A DNA stretch of 44,039 nucleotides from a phage, in NCBI GenBank assembly GCA_030821775.1, contig GCA_030821775.1_4700.1. The stretch is one strand, 5' to 3'. The notes under the pieces were generated by a model that was given only the letters and a program-made list of their open reading frames with translations, made no database searches and had not been told where the DNA came from. Below, one piece after another: positions 1 through 6,877 of this stretch. Position numbers and translations under genes: made by a program. The first letter of the stretch is position 1. Each line of letters starts with the position of its first letter.

Positions 1-48
1 AAAAAAAAAAAAAATAGCCCTACCTCACGGGTAGCGAGATAGGGCATA
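1..48 (-). terminator. Rho-independent terminator after the major capsid gene
   Basis: On the minus strand a GC-rich imperfect hairpin (plus ~17-48, arms GCCCTA/TAGGGC) is followed by a 14-nt U tract (plus A14 at 1-14), ~50 nt past the capsid stop. Confidence 0.6.
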
Positions 49-96: not shown

Positions 97-1260
97 TCAG
101 CCGCCAGTACCGGTAGCTACCAGATCTTCAGCAGGCATGAGGGCAGCAGCGGCAGCACCTGCCGGAGCGGCATTCTTGACATACACAGCTTTGCGCTGTG
201 CACGGCTAAGAACTTGAGTGTGCTGTTCTCCATCAGCACTCACGGCACCACCATTAGATGTGTCACGCTTAGTTGTTACAACAGACACTGCTTCCCAGCG
301 ATCAGGGATTGCGCCTTCAGACATGAAAGTATCAATATAGTAGGTCTTCTCTTTCTTCTCATAGAAAATGTCACCTGTTAAATCAATGGAACGACCCACA
401 AGCAGAGCGTCAGATGTGAACAGTACAGCAATAGCGCCATTCATTTCTGCAATCGGGTCATAACGATAACCGTTGTCTTCATTGGAAAGCAGGTGATGTT
501 TCTGACCCGGAGAGAATTTAGGGAAGCGGTTAGACGGGATAACAGGGCAGTTGTAAGAAGACAGAACAAAGCCCTGAATGGTTGCACCAGACAGACTAAT
601 GGTGTAGGACTTATCAACAATGCGGTCTGCATCCCGCAGGCAGTTGAAGTATTTCCACGGCATCAGGATAGCTACATCAGAGATGTCTACTTCCTGCTCA
701 AGCTGCTGCTCCAGAGCAAATTCTACAGCCGCCATTACATACTGCGGGTTAGCCAGTGCTTCTGCTTCGTTGACCTCTACGTTGATAGAGAAGCCATGAC
801 CTTTAACACGTGGCGTATGACGTTTCTTAACAGTGTTGCGGATACCGCCAAGCAGCATCTGCTGAATCAGCATCTCGTCTTCCATCTTCTTAAGCTGCTT
901 GGCTTGGTTAGTAGCCAGCTTCGGCTTCAGGCTGTCAATGTCACCCTGTACATCGTGCAGGTGTGCAACGGTGTTACGAGCGATAACAGTGGCATCAATC
1001 ACCAACTGGTTTTTATCCGCCTGAGTAGAGGTTGCAGCCGGAGACTGACCCGGTGCCAGAACCTGCAACTCAGTTTCACCCAAGTATTTGTTGCTGACAG
1101 TGTTGGTGCCAGTAACGGTCTGAACATCGAAGTAGCTCATGATGTTCTCGCCTTTCAGGTACTGCTCATTCACCTTACCGTTAAACTTCTCAATGAGAAG
1201 ACTATCTACCTCACCAGAAGCGGAAATAGCAACGTTGGTCAGATTGTTCGGCGTAGACAT
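97..1260 (-). CDS. Major capsid protein (T7 gp10-like)
   Basis: 387-aa ORF with ATG and AAGGAG SD, directly after the scaffold gene, preceded by a phage promoter and followed by a terminator, as in T7-like phages. Confidence 0.8.
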   Translation of the reverse strand: MSTPNNLTNVAISASGEVDSLLIEKFNGKVNEQYLKGENIMSYFDVQTVTGTNTVSNKYLGETELQVLAPGQSPAATSTQADKNQLVIDATVIARNTVAHLHDVQGDIDSLKPKLATNQAKQLKKMEDEMLIQQMLLGGIRNTVKKRHTPRVKGHGFSINVEVNEAEALANPQYVMAAVEFALEQQLEQEVDISDVAILMPWKYFNCLRDADRIVDKSYTISLSGATIQGFVLSSYNCPVIPSNRFPKFSPGQKHHLLSNEDNGYRYDPIAEMNGAIAVLFTSDALLVGRSIDLTGDIFYEKKEKTYYIDTFMSEGAIPDRWEAVSVVTTKRDTSNGGAVSADGEQHTQVLSRAQRKAVYVKNAAPAGAAAAALMPAEDLVATGTGG

Positions 1261-1314
1261 ATAATAAAATCTCCTTATAAATCAAGTGGATATTTAGGGA
1301 GGCAATACCTCCTT

Positions 1315-1332
1315 CTATAGTGTCCCCTAAAT
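1315..1332 (-). promoter_or_regulatory. SP6-type phage promoter driving the capsid gene
   Basis: Plus strand CTATAGTGTCCCCTAAAT is the reverse complement of ATTTAGGGGACACTATAG, one mismatch from the SP6 consensus, between scaffold and capsid genes. Confidence 0.75.
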
Positions 1333-1336
1333 AGGG

Positions 1337-2254
1337 TTACAGGCCTTTAGCCATGCCAGCGCGACGGCGAGCATCCAGACGAGCCTGTGCCTCAGCCATA
1401 CCTTTACGGTCACTACCGAAGCGCTCACCCAGCTTGGAAATCTCACGAATGTACTGGTCACGGCTTAACGGGGAGTTATCGCCACCAGACGGCGCTGCCT
1501 GAGACGGCTCGATGAGGTTAGGCTTATCGTCGCCCTGTGCTGCCTTACGGCGACCTTCCAGTTCACGCACTGCGTACTGCTGTAGGTACTGGTTGCCAGA
1601 TTCCATGACAGCATTGAAGGCAGTCAGTTCGTCATCAGACAAGGTTTCAAGCGCCCACTCCTCAAGACGTGCCCATCCATCTTCCCCGCCGACTTCCTTA
1701 GAAATGTCAGTGAAGCGCTGGGCATTAGCTGCTCCCGCCTCTTTAGCTGCATTGGCTTCTTTCAGGAAGAATGCCTCGTTCTGTGCCTTGAGGCCAGAAA
1801 GGTAAGCATCTACTGCAAACTTGCCAAAGGCATCATACAGTTTCTGCTTGGTTTCATCGGACAGTTCAAACTTGCCATCTTTGGCATAGAGTTCCTTGGC
1901 TACCTGATTGGCATCAATGCCTTTCTCTTTAAGGCTATCAGTTACATCCTGCGGGATTTCTATTGTTACTTCATGTTCTCCGAAGAAGTATTGCACTTCC
2001 TCAGTGTCTGTCTTGGTGTCATCTGGCTTAGATTCACCATTCTCTCCGCCATTGTTTCCTTCTTCTGAAGGCTGTCCAGAATCTCCTCCTCTGGTGTCTT
2101 CAGTACGCTGTGCACCAGCATTGTCATCTTGTACATCAGCACCAGTGTCAGTAGAAACATCAGTAGTAGCATCAGTTGTTACCTCCTCAGTTGCTGCTAC
2201 GCTTGGCTCAGCAGTAGGGTGCGTAGTAGTTGGTTCATTGAATGAAAAGCTCAT
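1337..2254 (-). CDS. Capsid assembly (scaffolding) protein
   Basis: 305-aa acidic ORF between portal and capsid, start overlapping the portal stop (TAATG); size and position match T7 gp9. Confidence 0.7.
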   Translation of the reverse strand: MSFSFNEPTTTHPTAEPSVAATEEVTTDATTDVSTDTGADVQDDNAGAQRTEDTRGGDSGQPSEEGNNGGENGESKPDDTKTDTEEVQYFFGEHEVTIEIPQDVTDSLKEKGIDANQVAKELYAKDGKFELSDETKQKLYDAFGKFAVDAYLSGLKAQNEAFFLKEANAAKEAGAANAQRFTDISKEVGGEDGWARLEEWALETLSDDELTAFNAVMESGNQYLQQYAVRELEGRRKAAQGDDKPNLIEPSQAAPSGGDNSPLSRDQYIREISKLGERFGSDRKGMAEAQARLDARRRAGMAKGL

Positions 2255-3804
2255 TAGCCCTCCTGTAATCCTTGTTGAATGACATTAGGTACAGCCTTAG
2301 CCACACCTTCGTTAAGCATAGCCGCCTGCTGGTCCTCCATCGCCTGCTCAGCTTCCTTGCGTAGCTGCTCCTCAGTCTTGAGGAATGGGAGTTCTGCGGA
2401 AATCTGACCGCGTACCCAGTCCATATAGTCAGGCCAACTTATAGCTCTCTGTGCAGATTCAGGCCATGTCTGAGGCAGTGACATGTACTGTGCAAAGGTA
2501 GCCAGCTTGTCTAACTCAGCCATGCGGCCTAGCGCCTCAATACCTGTCACAATCACAGGGTCTACCAGTTCGTTAGTGAAAGAATCACCAGTCTCCAGCA
2601 AGCCCCACATTGCGATAGGTGTCTGCATGGTTACAGCGAATAGGGAGTACACGCCACCCATGTTCTGCTCAATCTCCAGCGCATCACGCTGAATCTCAAC
2701 GGCGGTCACACGTTCTGCATCACGACGAGTTAATGCTTCCATCATGAACACAGTACCAACGCGGCGAGTGTATACCTCAAGCACAGCACTGATTGGTGTC
2801 AGGTCTGCATACTTCCCAAGCTGTACGATGTGGATATCCTCCTCTACACCAGTGATAACCTCACCAGTGCCTGAGTTAACAAAGTGGTCAACATCTGTCT
2901 GAGCGCCGGGACGAATAAGGTACTTGATGTCAGCCATAAGTGCAGCGCCACGCGCCACAGCTTCTGACAGGAACTGGATAACGAACAGGTCGCCAGAGTA
3001 ATCCTCGGCAAGTGGACGGCCCCAATCTTCACCGTAAGAGCGCTTCCATGTCAGTGGAATGAAGGGTAGTTTCTCCTTCTTGATGCGATTCTCTTCTCCT
3101 ACAGGGATATCGTCAGCAGATTGCTTGATCTCCCAGAACCCATCGCCTTTGTACTTAGCGTGAGTGTACAGCTTAACGTTGTCCTCACCTTTGCACTTCT
3201 TGCCTTTCATCGCAACTTCTATAGCCATGCGTGTTGCATGGTCGAAGGTCTTCAAGGCTTTCTCTTGCAGGAGAATAATGTCCAGCAAGTCACCGTTAGT
3301 GTCACGGTTAACGACATAGTGGTGCATCGGGACGGCGCTAATCGCACCTTCCTTCGGCTTGTAAAGCAGGCAGCTACCAGCAACGATAAGGTGCTTAAAT
3401 GCCTCAACGATTGCCGGACGGAACTGGCGCTGCTCCAGTGATTTCATAGCATTAGTTTCAACGCGAGCAAAGATAGTAGCTAGCTGAGTCTTCTTCATAC
3501 CTCGCTTGGCAAGGATTTGTTCACCATTAACCGTAAGGTCTACACGGAAGAAGGAACGTTGTGCAGGGAACAACACCTGCGCCAGCTTGTTGGCTAAGTG
3601 ATTAGTCGCTTGAGCGCCTACACCTTGCCAGCCATTCTGTGAAGTGTTGTTGTCACCTGTATCGTTCATCAGGTATGGAAGTGTCAACTTAGCGTAGTGT
3701 TTAGCCCTGTCAAGGAATGGACTACGCTTAGTAGAAAACTTCTCCCACAGCTTAGGAATCTTCGAACGCTTGCCACCATACGACATGTTGGTGTCATTGC
3801 GCAT
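2254..3804 (-). CDS. Portal (head-tail connector) protein
   Basis: 516-aa ORF with AGGAG SD, immediately upstream of scaffold and capsid; size and synteny match T7 gp8. Confidence 0.8.
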   Translation of the reverse strand: MRNDTNMSYGGKRSKIPKLWEKFSTKRSPFLDRAKHYAKLTLPYLMNDTGDNNTSQNGWQGVGAQATNHLANKLAQVLFPAQRSFFRVDLTVNGEQILAKRGMKKTQLATIFARVETNAMKSLEQRQFRPAIVEAFKHLIVAGSCLLYKPKEGAISAVPMHHYVVNRDTNGDLLDIILLQEKALKTFDHATRMAIEVAMKGKKCKGEDNVKLYTHAKYKGDGFWEIKQSADDIPVGEENRIKKEKLPFIPLTWKRSYGEDWGRPLAEDYSGDLFVIQFLSEAVARGAALMADIKYLIRPGAQTDVDHFVNSGTGEVITGVEEDIHIVQLGKYADLTPISAVLEVYTRRVGTVFMMEALTRRDAERVTAVEIQRDALEIEQNMGGVYSLFAVTMQTPIAMWGLLETGDSFTNELVDPVIVTGIEALGRMAELDKLATFAQYMSLPQTWPESAQRAISWPDYMDWVRGQISAELPFLKTEEQLRKEAEQAMEDQQAAMLNEGVAKAVPNVIQQGLQEG

Positions 3805-3805
3805 A

Positions 3806-4015
3806 TTACACTCCTAAGCTAGATGCTACCGGACGTACTAGGCCTCGCTTGCCTTTAGCTGAAGAGGTGGAAGTATCATCGCCGCCACCGACTTCGATAT
3901 CCTCAGCACCAACCTCTTGTTGACGCGCAAGCTGCTGTGCCGGAACCTTGGTTTCGATGCGAGGTGCATCTTGTGCTAGACCGACTGCCTTAAACGCTTT
4001 CTTAACTACGCCCAT
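3806..4015 (-). CDS. Small Gly/Ala-rich protein, possibly gp7.3-like virion protein
   Basis: 69-aa ORF with AAGGAG SD just upstream of the portal gene; the T7 gp7.3 analogy is positional only. Confidence 0.35.
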   Translation of the reverse strand: MGVVKKAFKAVGLAQDAPRIETKVPAQQLARQQEVGAEDIEVGGGDDTSTSSAKGKRGLVRPVASSLGV

Positions 4016-4024
4016 GTTATCTCC

Positions 4025-4537
4025 TTAGAACTTATGATTGTACACAGTGCCGAACGTTTCAAAACCTAAGCGGTTAAACATACGACCGACACGCTCTTCG
4101 TTGATACCGGAGGCGATAGACAGGCGAGCCTCAACACACGCCATAGACTCAGCCCACGCCTTGTACTCCTTGACTAAGCGCATACCCATTAATGAGCCTC
4201 GCTTCTCAGGAACCATATAGAATAGCATATCACTAGCCACAATAGCAGGGTTCCACGGAGCCATAGGGTGGGTCGCAGCCCACAGGAAGCCGACAACCTC
4301 TCCATCTTCCACTGCCACCCACAGAAACATATCGCTTCTTGTGAGTGACTGACAGAGGAAATGTGCGCTGGTTTCGGCATCCCATACGGCGCAATGATGA
4401 GCCACCTTCTTCACCTCTTCCTCAACATAACGATTCCCTAGGTTTATGATTGAGGGAATATCGAGAAAGGAGGCAGGACGAATCATGGATGCACCACGAA
4501 TTGTTGCCGAATGCAAGACAGGATATATCGCTTGCAT
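4025..4537 (-). CDS. GNAT-family N-acetyltransferase
   Basis: 170-aa ORF with an acetyl-CoA-binding-like motif (EKRGSLMGMRLV) and GNAT-like beta-strand pattern; start codon uncertain (no clear SD). Confidence 0.55.
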   Translation of the reverse strand: MQAIYPVLHSATIRGASMIRPASFLDIPSIINLGNRYVEEEVKKVAHHCAVWDAETSAHFLCQSLTRSDMFLWVAVEDGEVVGFLWAATHPMAPWNPAIVASDMLFYMVPEKRGSLMGMRLVKEYKAWAESMACVEARLSIASGINEERVGRMFNRLGFETFGTVYNHKF

Positions 4538-4627
4538 TCATCCCAAAGTAACTCTTCGTGAGTCTTATCAGGACGAGGACGGGATGGTTGAAGAATTAGG
4601 TTCTCCAGCATCTCCATCCCCTCAAAA

Positions 4628-4825
4628 TTAATCGTCGGTTTCTTCTTCGTCGTCACCGTAAAGCTCCTCGACTTTCTCTTTAATTGCCTCGATAGACAGG
4701 CCAAGCTCTTCGGCCTCTGCAAGAATAGTGTAAGGTGGAGTCATGCCGCATGAGTAACTTTCAAAGATAGCCTCTGCTACCTCAACGGCACGAGTTGCCT
4801 TCATGGAATCAAATACTTGTGTCAT
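4628..4825 (-). CDS. Small acidic hypothetical protein
   Basis: Track ORF 4628..4879 trimmed to the first ATG (MTQVFD...); C-terminus is acidic (GDDEEETDD); upstream of the GNAT gene. Confidence 0.35.
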   Translation of the reverse strand: MTQVFDSMKATRAVEVAEAIFESYSCGMTPPYTILAEAEELGLSIEAIKEKVEELYGDDEEETDD

Positions 4826-5243
4826 GTTTCCTCCATTTACCTGCGAGCACAAGGCCCACATATGAACGAGACATACCAAGTATATCGGAGATACGTTGTT
4901 GTGTGAGGCCTTCTTCTCTTAATTTAAATACTTTAGCTATAGTTTCATTATTAAATTTGCATACTCCAGATTTCTCTCCACTTGCAGTTCTTCCCTTACG
5001 CTGCCTGTCTTCCATGTTCTCTTTATGTGAACCTAATACAAGGTGTAAAGGGTTTATGCAGCGAGGATTGTCACAAGTGTGCATGATGACCTTGCCTTTT
5101 ATATCAGATAGACTGACATTATTATAAGAACAGTAAGCAGCACGGTGAGCAGGGGTTGTTTTACCTTCAAACTTCACAGAGCCATAACCTTTATGGTTTC
5201 CCTTTTGCCGATGATCAATACACATCAGGTACTTCCTTATCAT
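4809..5243 (-). CDS. HNH homing endonuclease with C-terminal HTH
   Basis: 144-aa ORF with HNH-type residues (GYG...H...CDNPRCINPLHL) and a C-terminal HTH (LTQQRISDILGMSRSYV); overlaps the 3' end of the ligase gene. Confidence 0.7.
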   Translation of the reverse strand: MIRKYLMCIDHRQKGNHKGYGSVKFEGKTTPAHRAAYCSYNNVSLSDIKGKVIMHTCDNPRCINPLHLVLGSHKENMEDRQRKGRTASGEKSGVCKFNNETIAKVFKLREEGLTQQRISDILGMSRSYVGLVLAGKWRKHDTSI

Positions 5244-6162
5244 GTCTTAGTTCTGAAACTTTAGGAAGGCGAAGAACCCCTTTACTAGACTCTTGTAATG
5301 CCTTAACAGCAAAGATTCTACCAATGACATTCATCTCACCACCATTTTTAATATCATGATACATCTGTGCTGCATCCTCATGGGACCATCCACGCCCCAG
5401 CATGGCCTTAACAGACTTACCACCTTTCCATTTAAAGATTAAATTAGCTACCTTACCTTTATACTTACCCTTTCCTTCCTCCCACCCAATGCAGGTGAGG
5501 TCGTAAGATACCATACGCACGATCTTCGTTTGACGATAGCCCTTGTGCCCACTTTCATACTCCACATCAAGTTTGAATACAGCACCCTCTCGGCCTGCAT
5601 CTATTTGCTCTTGAGCAAACGCTTCAACTTCTCGCTCATTATGGCAAGGGGTAATAGGAAGGATAGCGTTGTACCCGCTAAGATGAGAGCCGATGCGACG
5701 ATGTAAAGCATCGTAACGTTTGAGATAAGAAACATCAGTGAATCCATCATGGAATGCCTTAATGGTTAGCATATCGAAGAAGTCGATATACAGGTTGTCT
5801 TTAATCTGCTGGCCTATGAAATCAAGTGGCTCGGTGCGGTTAGGGTTCACAACCCCAGAGATTGCCTCAAGGTAGATATCAACGGCCATAGACTGAAGCT
5901 CACCAAGATAAACGCCAACCGGAAAGGTAGCAAAGGTTTGTTCGAGGCCTTCAGTGTTTGCCAGTTTCTTACCAGTGCGACCAAAAATGCCAACGACACC
6001 ATCAGCGCGAACAACAACAGCAGAAAAGATACCATCTCGTTTCACCTGTGCATAACATGGAAAAGTAAGTTTCTTCTCAGGTACTTCACCGCGATGCTTC
6101 ACCAGCATGAATGGGTGGTTGCGGTGATCTTCGGGAAGGCCTAGGAATTGGAAGATGTTCAT
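5215..6162 (-). CDS. ATP-dependent DNA ligase
   Basis: 315-aa ORF with the nucleotidyltransferase KxDG motif (VKRDG) and strong SD GAAGGAGG. Confidence 0.8.
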   Translation of the reverse strand: MNIFQFLGLPEDHRNHPFMLVKHRGEVPEKKLTFPCYAQVKRDGIFSAVVVRADGVVGIFGRTGKKLANTEGLEQTFATFPVGVYLGELQSMAVDIYLEAISGVVNPNRTEPLDFIGQQIKDNLYIDFFDMLTIKAFHDGFTDVSYLKRYDALHRRIGSHLSGYNAILPITPCHNEREVEAFAQEQIDAGREGAVFKLDVEYESGHKGYRQTKIVRMVSYDLTCIGWEEGKGKYKGKVANLIFKWKGGKSVKAMLGRGWSHEDAAQMYHDIKNGGEMNVIGRIFAVKALQESSKGVLRLPKVSELRHDKEVPDVY

Positions 6163-6804: not shown

Positions 6805-6859
6805 AATTAAATCCTCCATTCACTATACAATCAAGGCAAGCTAATACCTGCCCTTTGTT

Positions 6860-6877
6860 CTATAGTGTCACCTAAAT
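6860..6877 (-). promoter_or_regulatory. SP6-type phage promoter
   Basis: Plus CTATAGTGTCACCTAAAT is an exact reverse complement of the SP6 consensus core; overlaps the stop codon of the phosphoesterase gene. Confidence 0.8.

Follow-up and report, generated by a model that had tools for sequence, protein, structure and literature searches.

A GNAT acetyltransferase gene with a fixed place upstream of the portal gene in an SP6-like podovirus, and its probable positional counterparts Rac and T7 gene 7

The stretch of DNA analyzed here (the window) comprises 44,039 nucleotides of a phage contig (GCA_030821775.1_4700.1 in the NCBI GenBank assembly GCA_030821775.1), and the element in question is a gene for a GNAT N-acetyltransferase. 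On the minus strand, the genes around it follow the order ligase, HNH endonuclease, acidic open reading frame (ORF), small ORF, GNAT, 69-amino-acid ORF, portal, scaffold, and capsid (Table 1). An initial annotation, made from the sequence alone, had reported a GNAT and a small acidic ORF upstream of it. Both ORFs lie on the minus strand, and the outer coordinates given for them, the GNAT stop and the start of the acidic ORF, were right; the start of the GNAT, the neighbor relation of the two ORFs, and the proposed nature of the pair need revision, as described below.

Table 1. Coordinates of the features around the GNAT gene, numbered along the window
Feature	Position	Strand	Evidence and remarks
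Terminator-like hairpin	17..45	-	Directly after capsid gene; 12-bp stem, 7 G-C pairs, T8 tail
Capsid gene	97-1260	-	In the gene order around the GNAT
SP6-type promoter	1312-1332	-	Next after 6857..6877; just upstream of capsid gene
Scaffold gene	1337-2254	-	In the gene order around the GNAT
Portal (head-tail connector)	2254..3804	-	Downstream anchor of the block; annotated homologues; phmmer E down to ~0
T7 gp7.3 homologue, 69 amino acids, SP6 gp29 type	3806..4015	-	phrog_9033, E 9e-13; phrog_1320, E 1.3e-8
GNAT N-acetyltransferase, 153 amino acids, SP6 gp28 type (phrog_1249)	4025..4486	-	Stop codon at 4025
Small gene, 44 amino acids (42 from second ATG, 4611), SP6 gp27 type	4483..4617	-	phrog_6507, E 1.8e-25
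Small acidic protein, 65 amino acids, isoelectric point 4.05, SP6 gp26 type	4628..4825	-	phrog_5860, E 5.5e-35
HNH homing endonuclease, C-terminal helix-turn-helix	4809..5243	-	Pfam HNH_3, zf-His_Me_endon
ATP-dependent DNA ligase, SP6 gp25 type	5215..6162	-	Upstream anchor of the block; Pfam DNA_ligase_A_M, DNA_ligase_OB_2; synteny
SP6-type phage promoter	6857..6877	-	Nearest upstream of GNAT block; 1 mismatch to ATTTAGGTGACACTATAGAAG

The identification of the gene as a GNAT is well supported. The protein scores 26.2 bits against Pfam PF00583 (Acetyltransf_1; gathering cut-off 20.7, E 1e-5), matches phrog_1249, labeled 'acetyltransferase', over residues 1-152 (E 3.9e-45), and is 74.5% identical to SP6 gp28 over all 153 amino acids; by its sequence it is a member of the SP6 gp28 family. 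An AlphaFold2 model built from an alignment of 16 family members reached a predicted local distance difference test (pLDDT) of 91 and a predicted template modeling score (pTM) of 0.87, and shows the complete GNAT topology, b1-a1-a2-b2-b3-b4-a3-b5-a4-b6-b7. A longer form of 170 amino acids, starting at 4537, is a mechanical longest ORF and was rejected. The 51 bases that it adds are the C-terminal coding end of another conserved gene. Homologues align from MIRPA onward (ATG at 4486). Among 37 related loci covering the gene start, 20 lack any in-frame start codon further upstream, and the ATG at -51 is seen only in the closest relative. The records of SP6, AAPEc6, and LL11 likewise give 153 amino acids.

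The pyrophosphate loop between beta4 and alpha3, for which the pattern Q/R-x-x-G-x-G/A is expected, reads R96-G97-S-L-M-G101 in the GNAT. Across the family R96 is invariant, G97 is found in at least 90% of the sequences, and position 101 is G or A. From this conservation we infer that the enzyme is probably catalytically competent. The top structural neighbors include the protein acetyltransferases Ard1/Naa10, Hpa2, NatC, Naa60, and PAT; the list is flat, and the class of substrate is not separated by it.

The wider family is large, with 5,548 clusters (50% identity) at E <=1e-10 and 17,266 at E <=1e-3 in the profile search. Among its metagenomic members are natural tandem GNAT-GNAT fusions of 318-385 amino acids (P0051, P0053, P0067, and P0080), a hint that the single-domain enzyme may work as a dimer. 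One of them, P0051, adjoins a giant cadherin-repeat protein (L087), and the wider family is therefore not confined to podoviruses. Distant members with 24-31% identity also occur in Pseudoalteromonas phage vB_Pun_Y3 (L013) and Roseobacter phage CRP-5 (L014, Zobellviridae), unrelated podoviruses in which the GNAT lies among structural and tail-fibre genes and not beside the portal. The contexts of three distant members were phage-like or were uninformative short contigs.

The position of the gene is conserved as well. Using family hidden Markov models (HMMs), 38 loci from IMG/VR were searched, 36 of which have enough upstream flank, and in all 36 the order ligase, acidic ORF, small ORF, GNAT, gp7.3-like gene, portal is kept. 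The same order was found in reference genomes of Molineuxvirinae, Colwellvirinae, and Gajwadongvirus (SP6, LL11, AAPEc6, SE29, S2, AS51, Alpheus, ECBP5, CB5A, and KL01 were checked), including ORFs left unannotated in Vibrio phage AS51. By tblastn, the GNAT was detected in 233 phage records, and in 225 of these the match covered at least 80% of the protein; the carriers include K1-5 and Proteus, Klebsiella, Erwinia, Vibrio, Pseudomonas syringae, and Marinomonas podoviruses. Counted by organism name, the records with the GNAT and those with the backbone of the window largely match (Salmonella 15/15, Proteus 13/13, Vectrevirus 18/18, Klebsiella 36/35).

The ratio of nonsynonymous to synonymous substitution rates (dN/dS) is 0.08-0.22 for the acidic ORF, small ORF, GNAT, and 69-amino-acid ORF where dS is unsaturated (about 0.09 for the acidic ORF, about 0.15 for the small ORF, and 0.09-0.12 for the GNAT), and 0.05-0.12 for portal and ligase; all four small genes are under purifying selection. 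The GNAT is a vertically inherited, position-fixed gene of SP6-like and allied podoviruses. It belongs to an ordinary family and is already annotated as a backbone gene of SP6-like phages, in which SP6 gp28 (NP_853588) and its homologues in K1-5, K1E, and Proteus, Klebsiella, and Erwinia phages form one family (phrog_1249). The neighbors of SP6 gp28 (gp25 ligase, gp26, gp27, gp29, and gp30 portal) are those of the window gene, which differs only in its sequence (95% identity to Salmonella phage PST_H2) and in the HNH insertion upstream. The SP6 gp28 family owes its name to annotation alone, and a literature search found no experimental paper on the SP6-type GNAT.

The initial annotation considered the GNAT to be accessory, outside the core gene set, and in a region of accessory-gene flux. 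The phage records and the gene order described above contradict the former. The flux holds for the HNH gene alone; the rest of the block has fixed synteny. That annotation had also regarded a conserved core protein with a known structural or metabolic role as evidence against its proposal; of these two features, it was the conservation that was found, in all relatives examined.

The transcription unit to which the GNAT belongs can be outlined from the phage promoters. A scan with the SP6-type consensus ATTTAGGTGACACTATAGAAG, allowing at most 3 mismatches, found 12 promoters in the window, all of them on the minus strand, with a chance expectation of 0, and to Vectrevirus coliphages the backbone at 10-34 kb shows ~85% identity. 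We conclude from both that the window comes from an SP6-like podovirus of the Molineuxvirinae (Autographiviridae) and is presented as its reverse strand. The genome is mosaic: the GNAT block (~3985-4813) has ~95% nucleotide identity to the Zindervirus Salmonella phages PST_H2 and SE29, and the replication and RNA polymerase backbone (10000-34000) reaches only the ~85% given above. The consensus scan found no phage promoter between 6877 and 1332, so that the GNAT is expressed together with the last genes for replication and the first for the head. A scan of the block for sigma-70 promoters and terminators gave counts at chance level, except for the hairpin after the capsid gene. This hairpin is probably the end of the transcription unit of the GNAT and likely the equivalent of the T7 terminator T-phi.

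Immediately upstream of the GNAT lies a conserved gene of 42-44 codons that the initial annotation overlooked when it described the acidic ORF as adjacent to the GNAT. Of its two possible starts, the second ATG is better spaced from the Shine-Dalgarno sequence and agrees with SP6 gp27. In the window its stop codon and the GNAT start codon overlap as ATGA; such an overlap, present in each of the 31 loci scored, measures 1 to 22 nt and is mostly ATGA, and because the stop overlaps the start, translational coupling of the two genes is implied. The family HMM found the small ORF in every IMG/VR locus with upstream flank. No Pfam family was found for it, even at E up to 10. It was left unannotated in the GenBank records of SE29, PST_H2, KL01, and AS51, and in distant relatives it is longer (66-99 amino acids) with a shared C-terminal helix.

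The acidic ORF was correctly described as small and acidic, and it is a real gene, with its PHROG family and a GGAGG Shine-Dalgarno sequence 5 nt upstream of its ATG. It is conserved as far as Colwellvirinae and Gajwadongvirus, and its family has one invariant Gly. Searches found no Pfam family (E up to 10) and no informative PDB relative; matches of the family profile to designed helical-repeat PDB entries were rejected as spurious, being many sub-threshold repeats, and a weak NCBIfam RecC match (E 0.11) was dismissed. The acidic protein would best be regarded as a conserved neighbor, co-conserved like every gene in the block.

To our knowledge, no phage GNAT other than Rac, which is gp28 of Pseudomonas phage LUZ19, is known to bring about host transcription shut-off. 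Expression of Rac alone is toxic to Pseudomonas; it needs its acetyl-CoA (acetyl-coenzyme A) pocket, raises host protein acetylation, and triggers cutting of the alpha subunit of RNA polymerase (Ceyssens et al. 2020, PMC7552054). The layout in LUZ19 is gp27 (small and abutting), gp28 (Rac), gp29 (a virion protein), and gp30 (portal). Like the GNAT of the window, Rac is thus a GNAT of ~155 amino acids that follows a small coupled ORF and precedes a small virion protein and the portal, and the two share the P-E/R-x-R core and the beta4 Tyr. A further likeness is that Rac is not a virion protein. Rac differs in belonging to another PHROG (phrog_3986) and in following the phage RNA polymerase gene, whereas the GNAT of the window follows the ligase gene.

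For profile comparison, Rac and T7 gp7 families were built from tblastn matches and fetched records. By hhalign, the family of the window GNAT aligned with the Rac family at 93.9% probability; the match (E 1.6e-7) spans 94 columns and takes in the YV-PE-R(G) core. The best PHROG of Rac outside its own is phrog_1249 (E 4.9e-4). In the T7-like Ghunavirus, Rac homologues with 30-35% identity occupy the gene 7 position, in the order 6.5, 6.7, GNAT, 7.3, 8. In the virion proteome of one such phage, phiPsa17 (phage 17A), gp6.7, gp7.3, and gp8 were detected and the Rac-type GNAT was not (PMC4517105).

T7 gene 7, labeled 'host range' (phrog_2746), holds the same slot, directly upstream of gp7.3 and the portal. 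T7 gp7 is shorter than the GNAT of the window (133 amino acids) and is without the acetyl-CoA loop arginine; no similarity between the two is detectable (hhalign probability 0.3%), and T7 gp7 gave no Pfam GNAT match. With the Rac family, T7 gp7 aligns over nearly its full length (hhalign 64%, E 6.4e-5). Reciprocal weak PHROG matches (E 0.012 and 0.025) and colinear BLASTP alignments (E 2e-4 to 6e-3 in a six-sequence database) point the same way. The sequences compared were T7 gene 7 (L010:1831-2232), Rac (L004:6535-7008), and the GNAT of phage 17A (L039:1438-1881). Because the loop arginine has been lost, T7 gp7 may be a decayed GNAT, or pseudo-enzyme. The literature searched contained neither this link between T7 gp7 and the Rac family nor anything on the function of T7 gp7; the papers retrieved under that name dealt with gp7.3 or with P22 gp7. 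Upstream of the slot, profile similarity was absent between the acidic ORF and T7 gp6.5 and between the small ORF and T7 gp6.7 or LUZ19 gp27 (probabilities <=0.6%), so slot-by-slot homology is not established there. The GNAT of the window is probably the positional counterpart of both Rac and T7 gene 7.

Starting from the fold, family, conservation, position, and coupling documented above, we infer a class of substrate, protein amino groups, and a role directed at the host. The explanation that we tentatively prefer, at a probability of about 0.45, is that the gene encodes an acetyl-CoA-dependent protein acetyltransferase with a host-directed, Rac-like role. The gene is transcribed from the phage promoter at 6877 along with the last DNA-metabolism and the first structural genes. 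Acting probably as a dimer, it would bind acetyl-CoA through the beta4-alpha3 loop (R96-G97-S-L-M-G101) and acetylate protein amino groups in infected cells as expression passes from middle to late genes. The effect would be like that of Rac, with host functions such as transcription or proteolysis disabled or redirected. In this respect the host-modifying role that the initial annotation also mentioned is plausible. A precedent for such chemistry is the anti-CRISPR protein AcrVA5, a GNAT of mobile elements that inactivates a host protein, Cas12a, by lysine acetylation (cited in PMC7552054); it is likened here by description, and it is a sporadic prophage gene whereas the GNAT of the window is a fixed gene of the phage backbone.

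Several observations speak against a specific Rac-like role. Pairwise BLASTP of the window GNAT with Rac gave no alignment (E 22), and the GNAT has no match to the Rac PHROG, phrog_3986, at E <=0.01. Any two GNATs can align at the profile level, so it is mainly the common position that speaks for specific kinship with Rac. Mutation has shown four pocket residues (Q, Y, V, and R) to be needed in Rac (PMC7552054), and only the Tyr aligns with an identical residue, Y90; the Q aligns with F89, the V with M91, and the R with M102. Cleavage of the alpha subunit is itself limited to one genus even among close relatives of Rac: it is specific to Phikmvvirus, shown only in Pseudomonas, and the GNAT in the same slot of LKA1 does not cause it (PMC7552054). 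In the enzyme itself, the central Gly of the Q/R-x-x-G-x-G/A motif varies within the family, and the usual position of the catalytic Tyr holds Phe in the window and F, Y, or T across the family. The variant loop could still work, because it binds via backbone amides.

The same enzyme might act on phage proteins and not on host proteins, as a helper of virion maturation or infectivity. It would, for example, acetylate the gp7.3-like protein at its N-terminus or in its lysine-rich N-terminal part, or else another ejection protein, and thereby tune tail assembly, adsorption, or ejection, which would fit the name 'host range' given to T7 gene 7. The succession GNAT, gp7.3-like gene, portal is the most widely conserved adjacency, present in SP6-like, Colwellvirinae, Gajwadongvirus, phiKMV-like, Bonnellvirus, and Ghunavirus phages. 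The gp7.3-like gene always follows the GNAT directly, with no more than 9 nt between the two genes or with an overlap of 1 to 26 nt; such tight adjacency is normal in genomes as compact as these. N-terminal acetyltransferases are among the top structural neighbors, and all 34 distinct gp7.3-like proteins start with M-[G/S/A/T], which fits methionine removal followed by N-alpha-acetylation, although many proteins have a small second residue and only a few independent lineages stand behind the 34 sequences. T7 gene 7 shares the slot, and its family aligns with the Rac family nearly full-length; T7 gp7 lacks the R...G motif, however, so its phenotype may be independent of catalysis. Reports of acetylated gp7.3 or gp6.7 are not known, and the T7 cryo-electron microscopy paper (PMC11784390) mentions no such modification. 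The only characterized occupant of the slot, Rac, acts on the host. On balance, a virion-directed function is possible and somewhat unlikely. The enzyme might also be a small-molecule acetyltransferase. Its substrate would be a metabolite, for example polyamines, whose pool influences how DNA is condensed and packaged, or a host compound that is toxic. DpA, a polyamine acetyltransferase (8a9n/8a9o, profile E ~4e-8), is among the best sequence and structure matches, as are phosphinothricin/ArsN acetyltransferases, AAC(6') enzymes, and SSAT2, and the gene stands at the start of the head-assembly genes; we regard such a substrate as improbable.

Much the least probable is the pair suggested by the initial annotation, in which an accessory GNAT toxin would be matched by the acidic ORF as its antitoxin or inhibitor, or the two would form a counter-defence pair acquired by gene flux. 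Small acidic proteins are often inhibitors or mimics, and GNAT toxins with an upstream antitoxin exist. The toxicity of Rac to Pseudomonas (PMC7552054) would also agree with this proposal. The distribution, on the other hand, is one of strict vertical synteny and not patchy, the small ORF separates the acidic ORF from the GNAT, and neither small protein has a ribbon-helix-helix (RHH), DUF1778, or other Pfam domain. PADLOC gave no match. A tRNA-acetylating toxin, the type for which the initial annotation had advised a remote homology search, is not among the closest relatives, and none is named among the PDB sequence and structure matches of the GNAT. With the GNAT-RHH type II toxins TacT, AtaT, KacT, and ItaT, the GNAT of the window has the fold as its sole likeness; those systems have an RHH/DUF1778 antitoxin and a patchy, mobile spread, whereas the window gene has neither, shows no specific similarity to them in sequence or structure, and sits in a strictly lytic phage with fixed synteny. 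The acidic protein, the 44-amino-acid protein, and the GNAT were also joined into a single chain and modeled by AlphaFold from a paired alignment of 18 phages, with pTM and pLDDT as the measures. The pTM was 0.54, slightly above the contribution of the GNAT alone, and the confidence of the GNAT was the same. Both small proteins were predicted to be helical (pLDDT ~80), the acidic one with helices at 7-25, 32-41, and 45-56 and a disordered acidic tail. Docking of the acidic protein was not confident in this model, for which pTM and pLDDT are not decisive. Among 195 family members there was no natural fusion of the GNAT to the acidic or the small protein, the only fusions being of the tandem GNAT-GNAT kind. 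With another gene in between and co-conservation general throughout the block, a role of the acidic ORF as a specific partner or inhibitor of the GNAT is not supported.

A broader interpretation, itself rather unlikely in our estimate, is that the GNAT slot is ancestral across Autographiviridae. It would have come down as SP6 gp28, as Rac in phiKMV and Ghunavirus, and as a decayed copy in T7 gene 7. The SP6-type enzyme with its coupled partner of 42-44 amino acids, and perhaps gp26, would then set infectivity or host range, and the target would be the ejection/tail protein gp7.3 or a host factor. Should this be true, the old 'gene 7 host range' phenotype of T7 would gain an enzymatic origin.

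The gene is thus a routinely annotated part of the SP6-like backbone, and not an accessory toxin or a defence module. The comparative point is that the SP6-type GNAT, Rac, and T7 gene 7 occupy one and the same genome slot. Should they truly form a single lineage, tractable phages of E. coli and Salmonella, such as SP6 and K1-5, could reveal the target of acetylation and could show whether protein acetylation is a general tool of podoviruses for host takeover or for virion maturation.

Downstream of the GNAT, the 69-amino-acid protein matches phrog_1320, of which T7 gp7.3 itself is a member, over residues 3-69, and its C-terminal GKRGLVRPVASSLGV resembles the nozzle-binding loop GGKKSLSVARSSGGGINI of T7 gp7.3. 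T7 gp7.3 is a small virion protein, whose loop has been placed by cryo-electron microscopy at the junction of adaptor and nozzle (PMC11784390). No Pfam family, VirionAssem_T7 included, was matched at E <=0.1, and hhalign gave a weak alignment (E 1.3e-3). The gp7.3-like proteins (L005-L084) have two motifs in common, the acidic core E-D-[IV]-x-[LIVM]-G and the C-terminal GKR-L-RP; those of L047-L053 carry an eight-residue insertion near the N-terminus.

On the upstream side, the HNH gene is an insertion and the sole mobile gene, outside the conserved block. In all relatives compared it is absent from the junction of ligase and acidic ORF, and the two genes overlap directly; in the window, the HNH gene runs at its ends into its two neighbors, with overlaps of 29 nt and 17 nt. 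Only one of the 38 IMG/VR loci, L062, has an HNH gene (1163-1594); it is homologous (E 1e-32) and lies one junction along, between the acidic and small ORFs. The HNH protein of the window is also 38% identical to T7 gp7.7 (E 1e-23, L010:2549-2941). Copies thus occur at three junctions: ligase/acidic ORF in the window, acidic/small ORF in L062, and 7.3/portal in T7. This looks like one family of homing endonucleases hopping between intergenic junctions.

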